Part shown: piece by piece, positions 4,309 through 20,000 of the stretch
Position numbering within the stretch: position 1 is the first letter of the stretch
Layout: every line of letters begins with the position of its first letter
Virus record (IMG/VR): IMGVR_UViG_3300020179_000022
DNA: 20,000 nt
Direction: 5' to 3' (one strand)
From: an uncultured virus (IMG/VR IMGVR_UViG_3300020179_000022)
Lineage: Duplodnaviria; Heunggongvirae; Uroviricota; Caudoviricetes
Program-made: the position numbers and the translations under genes
The notes under the pieces: generated by a model
The model's database searches: none
The model's input: only the letters and a program-made list of their open reading frames with translations
Told to the model about the DNA's origin: nothing

Positions 4309-4900
4309 CTTTTTTAATCCTTTTCCAACACACCCACAGAGTTGATTGCAATTCATGTGGGATAATATCGAGTTCGTTGGCTAATATAATAGTATTTTTC
4401 TTTATGAACTCATATTGTTTTGTTGTACACACCTGAGCATCCCATCCAAGTGATAGATAAATGTGATGTCTGTCCACTGTAACATGGTCTTTAGAAGAAG
4501 GATTGTAAATATTATTGAAGAAATTAACAGTTTTTAATCCACCAAGAGAAATCTCAACATCCTTCTTTGTAGAAGCATAATTAAGAATCTTCCTAGCCTT
4601 AGAAGCTTGTGCAGACGTATGTCTACACATCATCCCTTTTGTTCTAATAAACTCTTCAGCCATTGCTTTGTTGAGTGTCCATTCTTTAAGAGGTGACAGA
4701 GCTGAAATTATACCAGCTGTCTTCATCTCTGACAATCCATACTTCTCAGACAGGGCTAAAGAAAAAAAGTTGGCACGATTGTACCAACCTTTCCCATACA
4801 TAAAGTCATCATCTATACACTTGTTGTAAACATTCTGCATGTTTTCAACTATTCTCTCAGGATGATTATACAACTTCTTTAACTCTATTGTCCAGCTCAT
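4277..4900 (-). CDS. helix-hairpin-helix DNA glycosylase-like phage protein (resembles DUF7178)
   Basis: GWY...ISALSP...W..N, HhH-like LGGLKTVNF, VTVDRH (compare VDTH of Nth) and LQSTLWVCWK. Start uncertain (4900, TTG 4873 or ATG 4840). Confidence 0.6.
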   Translation of the reverse strand: MSWTIELKKLYNHPERIVENMQNVYNKCIDDDFMYGKGWYNRANFFSLALSEKYGLSEMKTAGIISALSPLKEWTLNKAMAEEFIRTKGMMCRHTSAQASKARKILNYASTKKDVEISLGGLKTVNFFNNIYNPSSKDHVTVDRHHIYLSLGWDAQVCTTKQYEFIKKNTIILANELDIIPHELQSTLWVCWKRIKKDEEKTSQKAS

Positions 4901-6344
4901 TTCTCATCTTGTTTAGGGAATTGACAATTCTTCCAATTTCATTAGATGAAATAGAAGGAAGATTAAATTCATACTTCTTAACTTCTTGAGCAAATGCTTT
5001 CTCGGCTCTTTCAGCTAGAGATTCTAGTTCATTCTCTACATAGAAATCATCCAGATCAATCGTGTCAAAGTCCAAGTCATGAAGAATTCTTGTGGCATCT
5101 TCTCTGGGGACAGTGGAGATTGGTAAATACTCATAGCATCTACCCTTGTGCTCACCAATACCAACAACCTTCATTGGGTTGATGAGCATCAATACAGACT
5201 GATCACCACACCCTACATAATGAATCTGATCAGCAGTGAAATGCAAACCAGCAGCAGCGCAGTCCTGTGTAGACCAATTACACTTATCCATAGGCATGCT
5301 CACCACTTGACCAATACGAATGTCAAATGTCTTGGTCCAATCATCTGTAAATCTATTCTCTGCTCTGTTTGGAAGATCTAGATAGAGATCTGTAAGAGTG
5401 CCTAGGTCCTCTCCCTCATAGTTTTTACTATTTCGACTAACTATACCATTCTCATCACAATCCCAGCAGCATGTCCATCTTTCATCCTCATCATCCCATA
5501 CATCTCCTGTACCATCACAACCATCACATTTTTCTTCTTGATTGATGAACATCTTATCATAGTGCATGAATGTATAACTTCCATCAGGACGAAGAATCAC
5601 ATGATAATCATTAGGACTTTTCTTCCATACAGCTTTGATGTTTGTGTAGGTTTCGCTAACAAAACGAACAAGCTCATTTGATCCATGTAGAGTGACAACA
5701 TTTCGTAGAGCTACGAAGAATCCTTGCTTGGTTATTCTGAAGCTATTCTCTACAAGAAATCTATACAACTCATCAGCCACTTCAGCACGAGGATTCAAGC
5801 AGCACCACATGAAGAATCTCTTCAATGACAAATACTGCTCATCCTGGTAAACATCATCATGCACTTCATCCCCTGTTCTATACAGAGAAATTACATCAAT
5901 AAACTTTTCTACAAGAAGCTGAGGAATAGTTCTGTTAATACCTTTCAGTTTTACAGTTCCATTTTTAACATCAAAGTCTTGCATTGATCCTAACACATCT
6001 AGATTGTTAGAGATGTTCTCATAAACTTTCTGTTGTCTCACTTCTTTCAACATGCTTTCATTAACAAGTTTGGCTTTGAACAAAACAATGATCTCTGCCT
6101 CACTTCTAGCATTCTTTACGTTATCGAAATCATCAATGGTTGATGATGGTCTGGATAACACTTCTCCATTCTTCAAAACAACTGTGAGCACATCGTTCAC
6201 AAGTTTAAGTTTATCATATGGTTTTTCAGAAGTTTGTAGCTCTCTTCTCAGTAAGCTATTCTTTAGTGCTTGTTCTTCAATCTTTAGATTATCAAGCATT
6301 CTTTTTGCGTTGGACTTGAACCAATCGAGTGTGAAAATTGACAT
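4866..6344 (-). CDS. rIIB: rIIB-like protein with zinc-finger insertion
   Basis: Directly follows rIIA. Motifs LNP...ELYRFL...ITKQGFFVALRNV, IGQVVSMP...C...CAAAGLH and INPMKVV...KGRCYEY match the rIIB pattern. Confidence 0.85.
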   Translation of the reverse strand: MSIFTLDWFKSNAKRMLDNLKIEEQALKNSLLRRELQTSEKPYDKLKLVNDVLTVVLKNGEVLSRPSSTIDDFDNVKNARSEAEIIVLFKAKLVNESMLKEVRQQKVYENISNNLDVLGSMQDFDVKNGTVKLKGINRTIPQLLVEKFIDVISLYRTGDEVHDDVYQDEQYLSLKRFFMWCCLNPRAEVADELYRFLVENSFRITKQGFFVALRNVVTLHGSNELVRFVSETYTNIKAVWKKSPNDYHVILRPDGSYTFMHYDKMFINQEEKCDGCDGTGDVWDDEDERWTCCWDCDENGIVSRNSKNYEGEDLGTLTDLYLDLPNRAENRFTDDWTKTFDIRIGQVVSMPMDKCNWSTQDCAAAGLHFTADQIHYVGCGDQSVLMLINPMKVVGIGEHKGRCYEYLPISTVPREDATRILHDLDFDTIDLDDFYVENELESLAERAEKAFAQEVKKYEFNLPSISSNEIGRIVNSLNKMRNELDNRVKEVV

Positions 6345-6405: not shown

Positions 6406-8730
6406 TTACTGATTTTCAAGTGATTCTAATAATTTTTCCTCCACTTTTTCTTCAAGCTTTGGTTTAGAATAATGTTCAGGATTAACCTTCATCTTGTGAT
6501 ATTTCATTAGATCCACTATAACTCTAGTTTGTTCTGGTGCACAACCATAGAAAGTATAACTTCTTATCATAGAGAATACAGTGTTCAAGAAATATGCTTT
6601 CTCAAGAATAGCTTTAACACTTACATATTCTGAATAGATGGAGTGATCAAACAAGTTATTTTGTTTAGCCACTTCAACCATAGCTTGATATACAAGCTTA
6701 TCGCTATTTGAAATGTAGTTTTTCTCTTTATAGTCTTGCAGCACTTCCAATCTATTAGCTATTTCTTCAGATATCTCTTTAAGAGTTGTTAACCTACCAA
6801 ACAATTGGTGATTTTTCATGTACAATTCATTGATCAGATATGCTGTGACAATACGTCTAAATGGTTTGTTATCACCTTCCATAAATTTTGAATAAGACAT
6901 TACATTTTTAAACTCTAGTTCTTCCAGCACTTTCATCTCTCTTGCTGAAAGCGTAATCACTTGAAGCTTCTGCTTACTATTAGCAGCAGCATATATGTGA
7001 TCAAGCTTTGCAGCATCTTCATGTGCACCATAAACTAACAGAGTTCCCATTTTGGGAATGTCTTTCAATTTCCATGTGTCTGTAACAAACTTGCAGTGTT
7101 TACCATCAACATATCTTTCCAAAGGAGCAGCCTTCTTAACGATGATGTCACCATCCATCTTCTCACGTCTAGTTGCAGTCACTCTACTAGAGGTCTGTTT
7201 TCTAGTTTGAAGAAAACTATCTGGAACAACTATAGCATCCAAGTCAATAAAGTTAGAAGTGATGCTATCGATGATCTTTTGAAACTCTACAATAGCCTCT
7301 CTCCAATGTTCTCTTTTAATAGTTCTTAGATTGAGAATCTTGTAGTAGTTATCATAAGCACCCATATTGCCAGCTTTTGGAAACAACTTGAAAGACGTGC
7401 TTTTTCTGATGAAATAATACGTACGACCCCAGTTACTTGACAGAGCTGTTCTTAGATAAGCTTTCTTAGTTTCTGACAGCTTTGATGAATATAAATAAGC
7501 ATTTTTATTGTCATCCAGATTAATGCTCGTTAGGTGTACATCAGCATCCCAGCTACGCTTTGTTTCTCTAAACTTACCTCTGCTGAAGGTTTGCGTCACC
7601 TTGTACTCTTTTAGTATGTAGTCATCATTCTTAACAAGCTTCTCAAGATCTAGATGTTTGACTCCTTCCATCTTAGGCTTGTTGATTACGATTTTACTAA
7701 ACACAGAAAGATATCCAGCGTTCAACTTTATTCCAGGAATAACTTCAACAGTTCTTTTGGAAGAGTTGTAATACTCTTTCAATTGCTGATAAGTTTGACA
7801 AGCAGTCATCTGCTCATTGTACTTATTGACAAAGAAGTCTGCCATTTGTGAAAGTCTATCCATGATGATCTGCTTAGCTTCCTGCGTATATCTGATTGCT
7901 TCTCTGTTTGGTGTAGGAAATATCCCATCTGTCAAACTAAATCTCAACGCTACAGGAAACTCTAGCTTAGGAATCTCTAGCTTACTAAAGTCTAATGGAT
8001 AGTAAACGTTATCTAAGCAGATGTGTAGATAATCATCACTTGCTAGTTCAGAATGCTGAAAGTGCTCACTACGATAGATTGTAAATGTGTTATCAATGAC
8101 ATAATTACTTACATTGACATCAAAATACACATCTTCAAAGTATGCAAGTTGCTCTTTCATCTTTCTGAAGAACTGGTCTCTATCACTCCATCTCACTGGA
8201 ACAATCACTTTTACACCATTTCTTTCAGCTGTAGGTCTTTCATACAGACGATCGATAGTGTTTGTATCCTCGCCTTCGTACATCATATACTTACGCTCCA
8301 TCCCATCCTTTCTACAGATGAAATAGAAACTAGATGAATAAGCAAGAGGGGCCTTGAAGCCAAGACCCATCATACCTAATTCTGTATCAGAGTTACGCTT
8401 TGTACTCTTACCATACTTACTAATGATGTTCTTTACATCATCATCATTTAGACCAATACCAAAGTCTTCTACAGAGAAGTCATAGTTTTGGCTGCTGTTC
8501 ATTCTGAGACTAACAACAATTGGATCTTTCACTCCAGCTCGTCTGTGGCTATCTAGTGCATTACTAGCGCACTCTCTGATAGTTGAGCCTATTGAATCTG
8601 AATAGAGATTCTTACTTAACATCTGCATCAAAATTTGAGCAGAATCCAAGTCTAGTGACATTCCAATTGATTCATTCATTTCGTCACCATCAGTGACAAT
8701 CATTGCTTCTTTTTGTTTTTCTAAGATCAT
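6406..8730 (-). CDS. rIIA: rIIA-like protein (N-terminal GHKL/HATPase_c ATPase)
   Basis: LSKNLYSD...IRECASNALDSH, VEDFGIGL, STKRNSD..GMMGLGFKAPLAYS, NGVKVIVPV and PTPNREAI. ATG 8730 is preferred over GTG 8751. Confidence 0.9.
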   Translation of the reverse strand: MILEKQKEAMIVTDGDEMNESIGMSLDLDSAQILMQMLSKNLYSDSIGSTIRECASNALDSHRRAGVKDPIVVSLRMNSSQNYDFSVEDFGIGLNDDDVKNIISKYGKSTKRNSDTELGMMGLGFKAPLAYSSSFYFICRKDGMERKYMMYEGEDTNTIDRLYERPTAERNGVKVIVPVRWSDRDQFFRKMKEQLAYFEDVYFDVNVSNYVIDNTFTIYRSEHFQHSELASDDYLHICLDNVYYPLDFSKLEIPKLEFPVALRFSLTDGIFPTPNREAIRYTQEAKQIIMDRLSQMADFFVNKYNEQMTACQTYQQLKEYYNSSKRTVEVIPGIKLNAGYLSVFSKIVINKPKMEGVKHLDLEKLVKNDDYILKEYKVTQTFSRGKFRETKRSWDADVHLTSINLDDNKNAYLYSSKLSETKKAYLRTALSSNWGRTYYFIRKSTSFKLFPKAGNMGAYDNYYKILNLRTIKREHWREAIVEFQKIIDSITSNFIDLDAIVVPDSFLQTRKQTSSRVTATRREKMDGDIIVKKAAPLERYVDGKHCKFVTDTWKLKDIPKMGTLLVYGAHEDAAKLDHIYAAANSKQKLQVITLSAREMKVLEELEFKNVMSYSKFMEGDNKPFRRIVTAYLINELYMKNHQLFGRLTTLKEISEEIANRLEVLQDYKEKNYISNSDKLVYQAMVEVAKQNNLFDHSIYSEYVSVKAILEKAYFLNTVFSMIRSYTFYGCAPEQTRVIVDLMKYHKMKVNPEHYSKPKLEEKVEEKLLESLENQ

Positions 8731-8734
8731 TGCT

Positions 8735-9055
8735 TTAAAATTTAATTCCACTTCTTTCTAATCTGGCTAGTGCTCCCCAGTAATATTCTTGAAACTTATC
8801 ATCCAAAAATGAATGGTGTAGTTTCGTAATTCTGGTTTCATGAGGAGCATTTACATAAGCCTTGTGATATTTTCTAATTGTTAAACCTCCTGGGTTTGAT
8901 TTTTCATCATCACCAAGTCCTAAAACAGAATAGTATTGAACTGTTCCTGTTTTACCTCTACCTACGAAAATTCCAAGGATCATATAATTGTTATACGCTA
9001 CGACAATCAAGTCTCCTTTTTCTATTACACCAGTGTATCTAGTTTCAAACATCAC
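8735..9055 (-). CDS. hypothetical phage protein (106 aa)
   Basis: GTGA overlap with the upstream stop; IEKGDLIVV is an SH3/KOW-like start. Confidence 0.75.
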   Translation of the reverse strand: MMFETRYTGVIEKGDLIVVAYNNYMILGIFVGRGKTGTVQYYSVLGLGDDEKSNPGGLTIRKYHKAYVNAPHETRITKLHHSFLDDKFQEYYWGALARLERSGIKF

Positions 9056-9354
9056 CCAATTACTTTAAGTACAGGATTACAAATACGTATATACTTAGTT
9101 ACATTGAACTCGTCAATGCTGAACTGTTGCTCTGCATACGTACGATTCTGTGGATTGTATCCAGGAATTGGTTTGTATTCAACATTCACCAGACATCTAG
9201 TTGTTTTGTAATAGTCATATTGACCATTAGCATACGTTTTAGTAATCTTAGCAGGCTTCTTTACAATCTTTGCTGTTCTCATTTCAGTTAGAGAAGGATA
9301 GATGATTACATCTCCTGGCTCTAAGTCTTCTGGATTAATTAGTTCTGTTAACAT
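9052..9354 (-). CDS. hypothetical phage protein (100 aa)
   Basis: ATG with A-rich leader 10 nt after the ung stop; LEPGDVIIY is an SH3/KOW-like start. Confidence 0.78.
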   Translation of the reverse strand: MLTELINPEDLEPGDVIIYPSLTEMRTAKIVKKPAKITKTYANGQYDYYKTTRCLVNVEYKPIPGYNPQNRTYAEQQFSIDEFNVTKYIRICNPVLKVIG

Positions 9355-9364
9355 GTGTTTTTAT

Positions 9365-10084
9365 TTAAAATGGTAAATCTTCATCCAACCAACAGATTGG
9401 TGTTTTCTTTTCGTCTTGTAATATTCTATTCATCTTAGTGAATACACCTTCTGAATCCCATTCAGTCTGCTTATAAGAAGCACTGGCTGGGTGACTCAGC
9501 TCAAAGCTCCATGTCAAAGGGCCCATAAATCTTTTGAACTTACTAGCTTCTTTGCCAAGGAATACTACTGGCACTCTACTTTGAGCAATAGGTCCTTCAA
9601 ACAGAAACTTGATGAATGATTCCCAGATTTTCAAATGAGAACCAGCTTTATTAATTTCTGTTGTTAGAGCTGCGTTAAGCATAAGCACTCCTTGCTCTGC
9701 TAGATATTTTACATTAGGATTCTTCTTATATTTCAAATTCAATCCTTTGTAACAATCTTTCTCTACAGCATTATAAAACTGTTCTAGAGAAGGTTGTAAT
9801 TTATCTGTGACAGAACATCCCATCAATAAACCATCTGCCACTGGCACACCATTAAACTGTGTGTGATAGGGACACATACCTAGTAGCACAACCTTCATCT
9901 TATTTAACGGTGTCTCTTTGAAACAACGATAGGTGTCAGAAGAAAGAGGGGCAATCTTCTTACCCCTCCTAGATTCTGCTTTTAGATATGCGTAGATTTC
10001 ATCACACTGCTCACTTTCAATGAATGGACGAATTAATTCATGCCAACTCTCATGAAAGTTTTCTTTGAATTTATCCCACAACAT
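9365..10084 (-). CDS. ung: family-1 uracil-DNA glycosylase homologue with atypical active site
   Basis: KVVLLGMCPYH (canonical GQDPYH), ADGLLMG, LQPSL, AEQGVLMLNAALT, GSHLKIWESF, VFLGKEA and SHPASAS. Start at ATG 10084 (MLWDKF). Confidence 0.9.
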   Translation of the reverse strand: MLWDKFKENFHESWHELIRPFIESEQCDEIYAYLKAESRRGKKIAPLSSDTYRCFKETPLNKMKVVLLGMCPYHTQFNGVPVADGLLMGCSVTDKLQPSLEQFYNAVEKDCYKGLNLKYKKNPNVKYLAEQGVLMLNAALTTEINKAGSHLKIWESFIKFLFEGPIAQSRVPVVFLGKEASKFKRFMGPLTWSFELSHPASASYKQTEWDSEGVFTKMNRILQDEKKTPICWLDEDLPF

Positions 10085-10880
10085 CTGCTTCTTGTAATTG
10101 ATCAAAGATTGTAAGCTGTCTTCTTGAAGAAGGCGCTTCAAATCCTATGTTAATTGATTTACTTTTTAATTCACCAGCGGCGGTCACGAAGAAGTCATGA
10201 GCATCAATATGATTACCCATCCATAATGTTGGATGCACTTCTTTCATAGCAAATGTAGTGTATTGATACAACTCCCATAAACTCTGTGGAGCACCATAAT
10301 CATGTGTTGGTTTGTTCAACTCACGCTTGATGATGTTTAGCTGTGTAGACTCAATGAACTCTTTCTCAAGAATCATTCTACCTACAAGCTCAGCTGTTAT
10401 ACGAGCATCAATTTGAACATGCTTCATAAGCTCACGATCATCTTGCATCTTTCTGAATCCATCACCAGCAGATTTAATGTATTCCACTATAGCAGCTGGT
10501 GTAAACTCTTGTACATCTCCCTGATGCTTCTTCTTGAATGCACCATAGTCACCACTCACCATACCATTTTGGCAAATGAAGATTTGTGTACCAATAGCAA
10601 ACTTCAAGCTTAAGCTCTTGTCATAGCTGTTTTGCCAGCCAATCTGTAGCTGCATCTCTTTATCAGCTACGTTGCTGATGGTAAACTTGCCATTGGCAAT
10701 ATTACCTTCTCTTGCAGATGAATAGGTTTCTGTATCAAGTCTGAATCCTGCTTGATGAATGCTCTCCAGGGTGAGGTCAATTAGTTGACCATGTGAAACA
10801 GGCTTATACGTGCGTGTCTCTTTAGGAAGTTCTGTACCTGTGAGAAAATATTTAGTTGTTGAATAAGTTTTGTTTGACAT
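10071..10880 (-). CDS. DUF932-like phage/plasmid protein
   Basis: TYKPVSH, NSYDKSLSLKFAIGTQIFICQNGMV...KKH and SLWELYQYTT follow the DUF932 (NSxDG...vC.NG...H) pattern. Confidence 0.75.
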   Translation of the reverse strand: MSNKTYSTTKYFLTGTELPKETRTYKPVSHGQLIDLTLESIHQAGFRLDTETYSSAREGNIANGKFTISNVADKEMQLQIGWQNSYDKSLSLKFAIGTQIFICQNGMVSGDYGAFKKKHQGDVQEFTPAAIVEYIKSAGDGFRKMQDDRELMKHVQIDARITAELVGRMILEKEFIESTQLNIIKRELNKPTHDYGAPQSLWELYQYTTFAMKEVHPTLWMGNHIDAHDFFVTAAGELKSKSINIGFEAPSSRRQLTIFDQLQEADVVG

Positions 10881-10881
10881 T

Positions 10882-11079
10882 TTAATTACAGTTTTCTTTG
10901 ATTAATTCTTCTACGTCTGACATACACAAATCTATTTCATGAATTGCTGATCCTCCATCTTCGATTTCAGTTACAGCAAGATCATAAAGATCCATGATGT
11001 CATGTTTTAATTTAGGACAATGTGCAGCTTTTTCTTTGCACCATTTTCTTAATTGTAATAGTCTTTCTTCTGTCGTCAT
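10882..11079 (-). CDS. hypothetical phage protein (65 aa, helical)
   Basis: ATG 11079 overlaps the primase TGA (ATGA); the stop is 1 nt before the next ATG. Confidence 0.78.
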   Translation of the reverse strand: MTTEERLLQLRKWCKEKAAHCPKLKHDIMDLYDLAVTEIEDGGSAIHEIDLCMSDVEELIKENCN

Positions 11080-12092
11080 GGTATTATAAATTGTTGTTTT
11101 AGATAATGTTCGATAATTTGTAGTCCATACTTCTTTGCCAGATCTGCCCAATCTTTGATTTCTTCTTGTAGATAATACCTTGGTACATTACAATAATCAA
11201 AGTTGAACATCTCTGTTACCAATTTAGAATTCTTAACACCAGCCACATCGCTGTCAAAAGAAAGAATCTGCCTGCTTGAGTAGTGTTTTAAATAGTCTAC
11301 ATTCTCTTCAGAGAAACAAGCAACGCCTTCATTTTGAACAGCACATGTATATGGATAGAGTTTTCTTATCACCATATAATCTTTCTTGCTCTTATTAATA
11401 AAAGCAGGTTGATCTGTTTCAAGATTATCTTTCCCATCCATCATAGTGATGGGAGTGTTGTTAGGAAACCATTTTAAATCCTTACTGAAAGGTCTGTAAA
11501 TCTTCCAATGCCCATCATAGAAGTAGCCAAATCTCAATTCAGTTTCTTTGAGATGAACTAGTCTTCTGTTTAGATAGAGCTTCTTAATAGAATACACATT
11601 GTTCTCTTTCAAGTCTTCTACATCTTGATAATATTGATTCCAATACTCAAGCTCTTCGTTTGTGAACTTTCTAGTTATCACTTGTATGTGTGAATACCTC
11701 TTTTCCAAATTCTTAGGCTGTTCGTATTTAGATATAATCTCTGTATAGCTTGGAAGATCTTTTCTTTTCTTTGCTCTTATTCCTAGATTGAAGTCTCTAT
11801 CAATCATTTCAAGACATTCGTTATGTCCTACATTAAATAGCTGCTTGACAAGATCAAAGCAGCCACCTCTATAATGTGGATCTGAATGATCCATATAGAA
11901 GAGTCTATTATCTTTGGAATAAATAACAAATGAGGGATTGGATTCTTTTCTGAATGGAGAATACGTGGCTTTGTTCACTTGCCAATTTTTATTTGGCATA
12001 TACCATCTGAATATATCATACTCAGATACCTTGGACAAAATAGTTTCAAATACAAGCTCTTCTTTTTTTACTTTCTTTTCTCCAGCAATCAT
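11076..12092 (-). CDS. dnaG: DNA primase, DnaG/TOPRIM type
   Basis: N-terminal SPFRKESNPSF (degenerate CHC2-like domain), KIYRPF, INKSKKDYMV and TOPRIM DxD in SFDSDVAG; IKDWADL; replication-module context. Confidence 0.82.
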   Translation of the reverse strand: MIAGEKKVKKEELVFETILSKVSEYDIFRWYMPNKNWQVNKATYSPFRKESNPSFVIYSKDNRLFYMDHSDPHYRGGCFDLVKQLFNVGHNECLEMIDRDFNLGIRAKKRKDLPSYTEIISKYEQPKNLEKRYSHIQVITRKFTNEELEYWNQYYQDVEDLKENNVYSIKKLYLNRRLVHLKETELRFGYFYDGHWKIYRPFSKDLKWFPNNTPITMMDGKDNLETDQPAFINKSKKDYMVIRKLYPYTCAVQNEGVACFSEENVDYLKHYSSRQILSFDSDVAGVKNSKLVTEMFNFDYCNVPRYYLQEEIKDWADLAKKYGLQIIEHYLKQQFIIP

Positions 12093-12481
12093 TGATATTG
12101 AACATATTGTTTCACCTCATTTATTCTAGATCCTATAGCGTTGTTGATTTTACTCTTCAGTTCAAATCTTCTGTCATTAAGGAAATAAACACTTCTGGCT
12201 TTCGCAATAAATTCTTCATCAAATTTTTTATCAGCTTCCATTTTTCTCAGGACATCTTCTACGTCCCAAAGATTCTTGTTTACCATCAGAAGAAGATCAT
12301 AAAGCTCTTCCACTTCTTTGTTTCCAAAAAAAGGATGTGCTACATCCATTAATTCTTGTAGCTCGTCCTTTACCATTACTAGCTTCTCTGTGTCAGTGAT
12401 CATGACACGTTTAATGTTGAGGATGCTCACTTTATCAAGCAGTTCCCCAACGCTCCCAGGTATCCAAATTACTTTTGCCAT
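12089..12481 (-). CDS. DUF6165-like all-alpha protein
   Basis: SVGELLDKVSILNIK...VNKNLWDVEDVLR...FIAKARSVYFLNDRRFELKSKIN...INEVKQY; ATGA-coupled to primase. Confidence 0.75.
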   Translation of the reverse strand: MAKVIWIPGSVGELLDKVSILNIKRVMITDTEKLVMVKDELQELMDVAHPFFGNKEVEELYDLLLMVNKNLWDVEDVLRKMEADKKFDEEFIAKARSVYFLNDRRFELKSKINNAIGSRINEVKQYVQYQ

Positions 12482-18096: not shown

Positions 18097-20000
18097 TTAA
18101 AACAAAGAAATTTGGTTAGCTATTCTCTCCACCTTTTTCTTCTTCCCCTTAGTGACAATCTTCAATACAAGACCTTCTGCTTTATCAATGTAATAATCAT
18201 AGTTGATATTCATTGATATAATGTCTGTGTCTTTTGGAAGATGATTAACCACTTTGCACAACCAATCACCAGCTTCCACTTGTGAGCTGTTAGGTGCTGT
18301 AGAAGTTGAATCCTGGTTCTTGATTTTAAGTAGCTTCTCACCATCACTACTCTTTGTGATGTAATATCGAATCAACTTATTATAAATTGATGGCTCCATT
18401 CCTCTTCTATATCCCTCGTAATGAAAATCACTTGTTGACTTTTGTCTTATACAAAAATCAAAAGGATTTTTATGAAGAGTAATAGTCTGAGAAATAGGAA
18501 TGTTATCAACATAATAACGCTCAAGAGCAATAGGAACAATTCTGGAGGATTTGTTTTTATGAAGTTCAAAATCTGTGAGAAAATCCCCTTTCTTTTTAAT
18601 TTCTCCATCTGTCTTAATAGCTAGGTAGTCATTCACTGTTGAGAAGATAATTTTCCTGTAATCAGCTCTTTCTAGTTCATATCCAGTTAGCTTACACCAC
18701 CAGGCATTAATCCTATCCATCTCAGCAAGTTTGCTTTTGTGAATGTAGATTGTTACACCATCAGTATTAGCTGATATGACACGTATGTCTTTGGTTTCAT
18801 ACGCTTCGATGAGCATCATCAAAGATAATTCCCCTGTGATGGTTGTAAACATAGTGAGTTGTCTATCATATATCCAACTATTCATGTCACTAGATTTACC
18901 ATACACAGAGTTTACAGCAAGCTTCAACGCACCAACAATACCCTTAATCTTCTTGTCTTTCTTGGCAAGAGGCTTTAGTTCTAGACGCTTCTCATACATC
19001 TTTTTATAGCCTGTGAGAAACTCTTTTCCTAAATGATATGGATACTGCTTGTTATTGATGATGATGGCAGGATAGTAGCTAGAAACGTCCCAGTCAATGA
19101 TTAGATGATCTTCATCCTCTTCAAACACTTCTGGTTTGTTTTCAGTATGTAAACCGCCCTTCATGAAAGAATACACATTGTCATAGAAATGTATGTGTTC
19201 TTTGAAGTCATCATTTATGCCTAGACGTAGCTTCTTTATCTTCTTGAGAAACTGATCAAGCTGTACAGTTTTGAATTGCACATAAGGAGCAATGCATTGA
19301 CTGATAAAGATGTACTTTCTGAAATGACCCTTTCTAGGAAGTAGTTTGACATCCATTCTCTTCTCTTCACAATAGTATTTCTTGATGATCTCATCACCAA
19401 TCTTACTATCTGAATAGTTTATGCATGGAATACCAAACTCTTTCTCTATATCCAATCGTAATTGAATCTGATCATTACCCTTGTACAACGGATGTTCTGT
19501 TTCACCAATAGTCACCTTGTAAAACTCATAGGTGGCCATTACATCATTTTGACAATACTGACGTGTGAGTTTTCTATCTTCTAGAGTCATACCAATCTTT
19601 GTATGATGAATAGGCATCTCTTCAATGTTCTCGAGATCCATTTCAAACTCTAGTCTCTTTAGACTAACACGTCTGTTTTTGTTATCAAAGTGATGCACCT
19701 TGAATAGATCAATCTGACTAAGTGTAAGCTCTTCTTCACGATATTCAGCAAATACATCATAGTTTGCATCATCTATTACATCCTGAGCTTTCTGAGCAAT
19801 CATGGCTGTCACCTCAAGATTGGATTTTTCACCCCAATCCTGGCATTTTCTCAAGATCCATTCAACTATTTGGCTGTCAAATCTTAGATTATTGTAGCCT
19901 ACCCAGTAGAAATGTTTATGTCTTTCTGCAAACTCTGCAAACAATTCTATTTCATACTTGCTCTTGCTCACCTCAAACTCTCGATATGTATTCTCGTGAG
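18097..20000 (-). CDS. polB: family B DNA polymerase (5' part outside the window)
   Basis: ExoII GYNNLRFD, ExoIII YCQNDV, motif A DWDVSSYYP, motif B KLAVNSVYGK and motif C SANTDG. The frame stays open from 19971 to the window edge and ExoI is absent, so the true start lies upstream. Confidence 0.95.
   Translation of the reverse strand, partial: HENTYREFEVSKSKYEIELFAEFAERHKHFYWVGYNNLRFDSQIVEWILRKCQDWGEKSNLEVTAMIAQKAQDVIDDANYDVFAEYREEELTLSQIDLFKVHHFDNKNRRVSLKRLEFEMDLENIEEMPIHHTKIGMTLEDRKLTRQYCQNDVMATYEFYKVTIGETEHPLYKGNDQIQLRLDIEKEFGIPCINYSDSKIGDEIIKKYYCEEKRMDVKLLPRKGHFRKYIFISQCIAPYVQFKTVQLDQFLKKIKKLRLGINDDFKEHIHFYDNVYSFMKGGLHTENKPEVFEEDEDHLIIDWDVSSYYPAIIINNKQYPYHLGKEFLTGYKKMYEKRLELKPLAKKDKKIKGIVGALKLAVNSVYGKSSDMNSWIYDRQLTMFTTITGELSLMMLIEAYETKDIRVISANTDGVTIYIHKSKLAEMDRINAWWCKLTGYELERADYRKIIFSTVNDYLAIKTDGEIKKKGDFLTDFELHKNKSSRIVPIALERYYVDNIPISQTITLHKNPFDFCIRQKSTSDFHYEGYRRGMEPSIYNKLIRYYITKSSDGEKLLKIKNQDSTSTAPNSSQVEAGDWLCKVVNHLPKDTDIISMNINYDYYIDKAEGLVLKIVTKGKKKKVERIANQISLF

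Follow-up and report, generated by a model that had tools for sequence, protein, structure and literature searches.

What can a protein do that has the fold of a family-1 uracil-DNA glycosylase (UDG) and a cysteine where the catalytic aspartate is expected? The question is posed by a gene on the minus strand of a 20,000-nucleotide stretch of DNA from an uncultured virus of the class Caudoviricetes (IMG/VR record IMGVR_UViG_3300020179_000022); the whole stretch is called the window below. Few DNA repair enzymes are understood as well as the family-1 enzyme, UNG, whose Asp-His pair is regarded as its defining feature. In the window protein the His is kept, while the Asp has been replaced by Cys71. 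Our answer, held tentatively and at somewhat less than even chances, is that the protein may be a binder of uracil or abasic sites whose hydrolysis is crippled and which acts together with the replisome; it is drawn from sequence, gene order and analogy with known viral proteins.

A word-indexed search returned 1,303 proteins at E ≤ 1e-5, and the best 120 of these (64–94% identity) were aligned with the window protein, giving a near set of 121 sequences. The 120 homologues are 234–244 residues long and cover 88–94% of the 258-residue open reading frame (ORF) of the ORF list (9365–10141, TTG start); for this reason the ATG at 10082–10084 is taken as the real start, yielding a protein of 239 residues. 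Family-1 UNG is defined by five motifs (PMC5538708; papers are cited by PMC number). The gene and the counterparts of these motifs are located as follows, with counts referring to the near set:

9365–10084, minus strand: gene of the UDG-F1-like protein, 239 residues, with the ATG start codon at 10082–10084 and the stop codon at 9365–9367.
9863–9880, minus strand: motif A, the water-activating loop, GMCPYH (GQDPYH in UNG), encoded by GGT ATG TGT CCC TAT CAC; the Cys codon TGT is at 9872–9874.
9815–9838, minus strand: ADGLLMGC, the base-stacking strand, with Met where UNG has Phe (M88 in 117 of 121; D84, G85, L86 and L87 in 121 of 121).
9788–9802, minus strand: KLQPS, counterpart of the Pro-rich loop PPPPS, with the Ser kept (motif definition from PMC5538708).
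9674–9685, minus strand: LMLN, the uracil-recognition strand (LLLN in UNG), with the Asn kept (N137 in 121 of 121).
9551–9556, minus strand: GK in place of the Gly-Ser loop (G177 in 121 of 121, K178 in 118 of 121).
9473–9493, minus strand: HPASAS and then Y204, where UNG has its Leu-intercalation loop HPSPLS; the His is unchanged and Ala replaces the Leu (H198, P199 and Y204 in 121 of 121).

The catalytic His-Pro of motif B, H198-P199, is encoded at 9488–9493 on the minus strand, and the invariant Tyr204 that follows HPASAS is a candidate wedge residue. A preliminary description of the window, made from the letters alone, had reported GMCPYH at 9863–9880 (naming no strand), the replacement of UNG motifs by GLLMG and HPASAS, the retention of the pocket Asn and of the motif-B His, and a full-length gene without frameshift. 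All of these readings are borne out. Motif A lies on the minus strand, and the frame is open throughout, with no internal stop and no frameshift. When the protein is compared to PDB sequences with phmmer, family-1 UNGs come out on top, with the D. radiodurans enzyme (PDB entry 2boo) at an E-value of 8.8e-19; this alignment pairs GQDPYH with GMCPYH, GLSFS with GLLMG, LLLN with LMLN, WGS with LGK and HPSPLS with HPASAS.

The AlphaFold2 model, calculated from a 125-sequence alignment, has a mean predicted local distance difference test score (pLDDT) of 96.9 and a predicted template-modelling score (pTM) of 0.92. In a Foldseek comparison with the PDB, only family-1 UNGs are found among the best 50 matches, with query-normalised template-modelling scores of 0.74–0.83, while in the BFVD database the best matches are UDGs of giant viruses, herpesviruses and entomopoxviruses. 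The poxvirus D4/E4 chains in the PDB are a far weaker sequence match (phmmer, E 1.5e-04 and weaker). Compared to the family-1 UNGs of known structure (2boo/4uqm, 1eug from E. coli and the human 1akz), fold and length are the same (template-modelling scores of 0.78–0.83), and the Pro-Tyr-His, the Asn, the His-Pro and the Ser of the Pro-rich loop are kept; the changes are Asp to Cys, the preceding Gln to Met, the stacking Phe to Met, the intercalating Leu to Ala and Gly-Ser to Gly-Lys. Against the five NCBIfam ung equivalog models the window protein scores 77–124 bits, below their cut-offs of 143–237, and against Pfam PF03167 its 258-residue reading scores 23.8 for a cut-off of 24.3 (the orthologue in the related IMG/VR record G003 reaches 24.8). 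The protein thus has the UDG alpha/beta fold with family-1 topology, the motif-B His and the LLLN-type Asn, and lacks the catalytic Asp of motif A, the intercalating Leu and the Gly-Ser loop, with scores under the NCBIfam and Pfam cut-offs. Because of its motif A and its equivalog scores it should not be filed functionally as a uracil-DNA glycosylase; the name "UDG-F1-like protein", found in two deposited phage records, is more accurate.

Is the cysteine peculiar to this one sequence? At position 71, 119 of the 121 aligned proteins have Cys and the other two have Ser (P0040 with GISPYP and P0113 with GFSPFH). Around it the pocket hardly varies: G69, P72, D84, G85, N137, G177, H198, P199 and Y204 are present in 121 of 121, Y73 and H74 in 120 of 121. 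At the nucleotide level, GMCPYH is encoded in 14 of 14 genes, namely that of the window and those of 13 IMG/VR loci with 60–92% identity; the Cys codon is TGT in twelve and TGC in two, and there are synonymous changes in the adjoining codons. The ratio of non-synonymous to synonymous substitution rates (dN/dS, Nei-Gojobori) is 0.05–0.13 in pairs with an unsaturated synonymous distance, and rises up to 0.21 in distant pairs. The gene is maintained by selection. A sequencing error and a pseudogene are both ruled out by the conservation, the use of both Cys codons and the dN/dS values. The homologue alignment and the search for purifying selection that had been proposed as checks in the preliminary description have therefore given a clear outcome, close homologues reading GMCPY, not GQDPY, and the private mutation being refuted. 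Since the Cys is neither private nor an error and the gene is under purifying selection, a changed function is likely. To that extent the neofunctionalisation suggested earlier stands; the coordinated rewriting of the active site from which it had been argued is not supported in the form given (see below).

What, then, might the altered pocket still do? In UNG, the Asn of the recognition strand reads uracil and the Tyr of the PY pair shuts out 5-substituted pyrimidines. Water is positioned and activated by the GQDPY Asp, and family-1 UNGs in which this residue is substituted are severely impaired; the motif-B His stabilises the uracil anion as it leaves (PMC13708272). In the window protein the residues that flip and read the base are kept and the carboxylate is gone, which argues for binding with slow or absent hydrolysis. 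The protein would flip a uracil-like base or an abasic sugar into the intact pocket; without a carboxylate to hold the attacking water in place and to stabilise the oxocarbenium ion, hydrolysis would be slow or would not take place. The job under selection would be lesion-specific DNA binding within the replication apparatus (PolB, primase and DnaB-type helicase), the protein acting either as a sensor or shield of uracil and abasic sites on the template, or as a polymerase accessory that grips the DNA.

How old is the loss of the aspartate, and how frequent? An exhaustive profile-free search of 1.84 billion representatives yielded 5,984 proteins at E ≤ 0.001, 125 of them at E ≤ 1e-30. From the best 150, 17 proteins shorter than 215 or longer than 290 residues were removed, and the window protein, four near homologues, six annotated phage UDGs and one bacterial-type ung as outgroup (L027) were added, giving a set of 145 rows. 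The Asp column of this set contains D 69, C 23, S 19, E 15, A 4, N 4, G 4, P 2, T 2, K 2 and V 1, so that 76 of the 145 sampled rows are without Asp at the catalytic position. In a FastTree phylogeny (LG+CAT model, with Shimodaira-Hasegawa-like supports only, and 68 of 142 inner branches unsupported), the window protein is located inside a clade of 20 rows with a support of 97, in which there is not a single Asp (C 11, S 5, other residues 4); Ala, Gly and Lys are among the residues found at the site within this clade. On the tree the state of the Asp position changes 17 times by parsimony, and at least eight of these changes are forced by supported branches. The Asp-free supported clade and the 17 changes indicate that the loss is old in the lineage of the window and recurrent in the family. 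To judge by this tree, catalysis is repeatedly dispensable across the phage UDG-F1-like family.

The canonical motif is not absent from related phages: GQDPYP is kept in the UDGs of crAss001, DAC15, cr111_1 and cr116_1 (Steigviridae) and of Flavobacterium phage Fpv1. In Cellulophaga phage phi14:2 the UDG homologue reads GKEPY and lacks the motif-B His as well, and in some branches of the family both the motif-B His and the Asn are lost (for instance in P0134, P0148, P0177, P0220 and P0253). Such branches, together with the N4-like DNA polymerases, in which a dead UDG domain is a precedent (PMC13697223), could be taken to mean that the window protein is a purely structural subunit, a scaffold or clamp-like piece of the replisome whose base pocket is no longer used. 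A scaffold would not need the pocket residues that are invariant, or nearly so, in the clade of the window itself, and we see little probability in this explanation.

Several relatives recovered in the searches have additional domains. P0141, a Ser-type relative of 385 residues with the motif GLSPYH, has an N-terminal NADAR domain fused to it, and a 723-residue Marseillevirus "NADAR domain protein" (BFVD entry A0A481YV43, Foldseek rank 17) also holds a UDG fold. NADAR enzymes strip ADP-ribose from DNA bases, and a tie of the fusion to the reversal of base modification is possible. P0138, a Cys-type relative of 524 residues with GMCPYH, has an N-terminal GIY-YIG nuclease domain, which could be a homing-endonuclease fusion or an artefact of gene calling. 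When related loci were scanned for with individual relatives, P0125 gave no relative, P0127 gave one locus and P0149 gave 80 loci, mostly of canonical UNGs of unrelated viruses, along with members of the window clade.

Does the cysteine come with other changes? The preliminary description had seen several coordinated substitutions in the active site. In the 145-row set, HPASA[SA] and the "ADG" before the stacking strand turn out to be family-wide traits, present in GQDPY-bearing members as well, and not all of the substitutions can be regarded as coordinated. Met is found at the stacking site in 10 of the 23 rows of Cys type and in 10 of the 69 of Asp type. The pocket residues are retained as follows, according to the residue at the Asp position:

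Cys rows: motif-B His 22/23, Asn 23/23, Tyr 21/23.
Asp rows: motif-B His 68/69, Asn 69/69, Tyr 69/69.
Ser rows: motif-B His 16/19, Asn 17/19, Tyr 19/19.
Glu rows: motif-B His 10/15, Asn 13/15, Tyr 15/15.
Rows with other residues: motif-B His 8/19, Asn 16/19, Tyr 16/19.

A His at position +3 (the H of PYH) is present in 20 of 23 Cys-type, 8 of 19 Ser-type and 6 of 69 Asp-type rows, 47 of the latter having Pro there. The associations of Cys or Ser with His at +3, with the stacking Met and with the loss of the Gln are raw ones, which on supported branches come down to just three independent pairs, and that of Cys with His at +3 may reflect shared ancestry.

A cysteine at this site could also mean covalent chemistry, one of the options named in the preliminary description. 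In one form, Cys71 would attack C1' and the protein would become covalently linked to DNA at uracil, as a suicide trap. UdgX of Mycobacterium smegmatis binds uracil in DNA in this manner, via a His, instead of turning over, and its SDS-stable (sodium dodecyl sulphate-stable) complexes show that such links are possible in the superfamily (PMC4787834); furthermore, a residue capable of acting as nucleophile, Cys in 119 and Ser in 2 of the 121 near sequences, stands where the oxocarbenium ion forms. UdgX, however, is family-4-like, with the motif A GEQPG, an Fe-S cluster and a KRRIH loop that contains the linking His, and the window protein has none of these; no family-4 features were seen, and its best matches are all of family 1. 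A DNA-protein crosslink inside the phage's own replication module would also be costly, and Ala, Gly and Lys stand for Cys or Ser in sister lineages. The trap is the least probable of the explanations weighed here. In a second form, Cys71 (Ser in sisters) and His74 would be a nucleophile-base pair, and a covalent deoxyribosyl-enzyme would make the protein a base-exchange transglycosylase, putting another base in the place of uracil, or a regulated trap at uracils of replicating phage DNA; we give this a very small chance, if a slightly better one. Any chemistry strictly in need of a thiol is disfavoured because Ser, Ala, Gly and Lys fill the site within the supported clade, and with Ser and Ala in sister lineages the earlier proposal of a Cys-based covalent chemistry is weakened.

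Where in the phage genome is the gene located? All long ORFs of the window are on the minus strand and, according to Pfam and PHROG matches, form a replication and recombination module. It includes genes for PolB, a DnaB-type helicase, an SNF2-type helicase, a Sak4-like ATPase, a DnaG-type primase, a DUF932 protein and the UDG homologue, followed by two small ORFs, rIIA-like and rIIB-like genes, and also a DUF7178 protein, an HNH endonuclease, a PD-(D/E)XK exonuclease and RecA. The neighbours of most concern here are:

18097–20000, minus strand: family-B DNA polymerase (phrog_1252, E 2.5e-127), its N-terminus cut by the end of the window; the full-length orthologue in G003 has 655 residues.
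11076–12092, minus strand: DnaG-type primase (phrog_12622, E 1.2e-33; Toprim_2).
10071–10880, minus strand: DUF932-family gene (Pfam PF06067, E 4.8e-09), directly upstream of the UDG gene, the start of which it overlaps by 14 bases.
9052–9354 and 8735–9055, minus strand: two small ORFs between the UDG and rIIA-like genes.
6406–8751, minus strand: rIIA-like protein with a GHKL ATPase fold (phrog_612, E 5.4e-58), downstream of the UDG gene.
4866–6344, minus strand: rIIB-like gene, within the replication module downstream of the UDG gene.

In addition, a small protein matching DUF6165 (Pfam) is encoded at 12089–12481 on the minus strand, between the primase gene and an unannotated gene of 297 residues. 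Among 21 related loci, one of which (L035) encodes a canonical GQDPYH enzyme, the primase gene is upstream of the UDG homologue in all 21, the two are separated by a DUF932 gene in 14, and rIIA is downstream in 18. The DUF932 protein is a candidate partner of the UDG homologue. PADLOC assigned no defence-system family to the UDG homologue or to three of its neighbours.

The related record G003 (108,291 bases with direct terminal repeats, rated 100% complete) has a UDG homologue that is 85% identical. It encodes a Crassvirus major capsid protein, tail ring proteins 1 and 2 and a muzzle protein, which places the phage of the window in the Crassvirales. No relative of its PolB or of its UDG with more than 36% identity was found among 50,697 deposited phage records. 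G003 also contains, at L025:7630 to beyond 20000 on the plus strand, one uninterrupted reading frame of over 4,123 codons, which presumably encodes the giant virion protein or RNA polymerase that crAss-like phages typically have, and a MazG-type pyrophosphohydrolase gene beside RecA (L022:8070-8375).

A second, canonical UDG in the same phage was looked for with the Pfam UDG model in the related genomes G001 to G005, and none was found: the model recognises one gene each in G001–G004 and none in G005, where it misses the phage's own copy. In the four closest near-complete genomes, G001–G004, which are 95–100% complete, no dUTPase was found (0 of 4); the more distant G005 carries one.

The polymerase differs among the phages with UDG matches. 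Of fifteen deposited phage genomes with such a match (W01–W15), 13 carry PolA, and all of them are Steigviridae/Asinivirinae or unclassified gut phages. Motif A is GQDPYP in the PolA-carrying deposited genomes that were checked, from which L110, L112, L114 and L115 were left out. PolB is carried by phi14:2, with its Glu-type motif and lost motif-B His, and by the Cys-type clade of the window, which are too few independent lineages for an association. In phi14:2 (L002), an amidoligase gene is located directly upstream of the degenerate UDG homologue.

Could the protein be a working uracil glycosylase all the same? The pair of Cys or Ser71 with His74, or His74 alone, might position the water, and the motif-B His and the DNA phosphates would supply most of the catalytic power, making a slow, product-inhibited enzyme of the MUG or TDG type. 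Several observations point in this direction and weigh against loss of hydrolysis. A pocket conserved as strictly as that of the Asp-type proteins is also expected of an enzyme that is still active, and there are other UDG families that function although their motif A contains no acidic residue. The Cys and the His at +3, which accompanies Cys and Ser far more often than Asp, could be a functional Cys-His pair. In the phiLo polymerase the UDG domain is active with Glu at the Asp site (PMC13697223), and poxvirus D4 itself retains the Asp and is active. The protein is the sole UDG homologue of its phage, and the lack of dUTPase in G001–G004 makes uracil in the phage DNA a plausible problem. As to the replisome, DUF932 is absent from the primase-UDG interval in 7 of the 21 loci, and the gene order shows no fixed partner. 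Against an active enzyme stand the severe effect of Asp substitution in family-1 UNGs cited above, the Ala, Gly and Lys at the site within the supported clade, and the three independent pairs to which the link between Cys and His is reduced. Retained activity, with which the strict pocket and the PYH association agree no less than with binding, is to us the foremost alternative and a real possibility, if on balance an unlikely one.

Might the base be another one? The protein could be a glycosylase or binder retargeted from uracil to a modified pyrimidine, in the DNA of phage or host, or to a base adduct produced by host defence, which the more hydrophobic pocket floor of Met70, Cys71 and Met88 would fit. 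The Met that replaces Gln, the Cys that replaces Asp and the Met that replaces Phe all line the pocket, the NADAR fusion of P0141 and the UDG fold in the Marseillevirus NADAR protein would agree with it, and G003 has glycosyltransferase and methyltransferase genes. These are present as two clusters of glycosyltransferase and Methyltransf_24 genes (L021:7670-13170 and L022:5313-7159), the target of which may be DNA or a surface glycan; they could equally serve the latter. Moreover, the Tyr of the PY pair and the uracil-reading Asn are both kept, and a Pfam scan of G003 (106 ORFs, E ≤ 1e-4) detected no thymidylate synthase, hydroxymethylase, dUTPase or amidoligase, and with them no sign of a replaced base. 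Retargeting is thus improbable in our view, though slightly less so than an unused pocket.

Binding without efficient cutting, in the service of replication, remains the reading we prefer. A role in replication is suggested by the fixed place of the gene in the replication module together with two precedents. Vaccinia UDG has a role in replication that is independent of catalysis (PMC1936997). In N4-like phages, the N-terminal UDG domain of PolA is devoid of the catalytic residues, and trans-encoded UDGs have been predicted to dock on the polymerase where the template comes in (PMC13697223). Like the window protein, poxvirus D4/E4, the processivity subunit of PolB, is a virus-encoded family-1-like UDG that occurs alongside PolB and has an altered Leu loop. 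D4 differs in that it keeps the Asp (GIDPYP), is active and is tethered via A20; no A20-like gene was recognised in the Pfam and PHROG scans of the window. The N4-like PolA domain is likewise a phage UDG fold with catalytic residues lost (PMC13697223), but it forms part of the PolA chain, and more of its residues are gone. The window protein comes from a separate gene beside PolB; of these residues it has lost just the Asp, and it keeps the His, Asn and Tyr. A fusion to a family-A polymerase was not seen here, where the polymerase is of family B: the gene is a stand-alone one of 239 residues, and all 120 listed homologues have 234–244 residues, longer forms not having been the object of a dedicated search. 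The UDGs of cultured or curated Crassvirales (crAss001 gp74, DAC15, cr111_1 and cr116_1, from Steigviridae and Asinivirinae) are similar to the window protein in being stand-alone, in their location in the replication region and in their HPA-type motif B without Leu. They are different in sequence (25–31% identity), in having GQDPYP and in belonging to genomes with PolA, while the window has PolB. By analogy, the window protein would work most like poxvirus D4 or the dead UDG domain of N4-like PolA, being distinct from both.

In the available text of Yutin et al. 2021 (PMC7886860), UDG is listed among the genes of crAss-like phages, without comment on its active site, and no account of a Cys- or Ser-type stand-alone phage UDG was found in a literature search that reached few subscription journals and no supplements. 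The Cys-type clade, its size and conservation, and the family-wide tally of the Asp position are what the present case contributes. About half of a large phage branch (the 76 of 145 sampled rows) is without the catalytic Asp, and one well-populated subclade has fixed Cys in its place, with the other pocket residues under strong selection. Whichever reading holds, the annotation "uracil-DNA glycosylase" given by pipelines overstates what is known. If the protein is active, it represents a new catalytic solution in a textbook fold. If it binds without cutting, these phages possess natural counterparts of the uracil sensors that have been engineered as "dead UNG", which could explain how the abundant crAss-like phages, several of them without dUTPase, handle uracil during replication.

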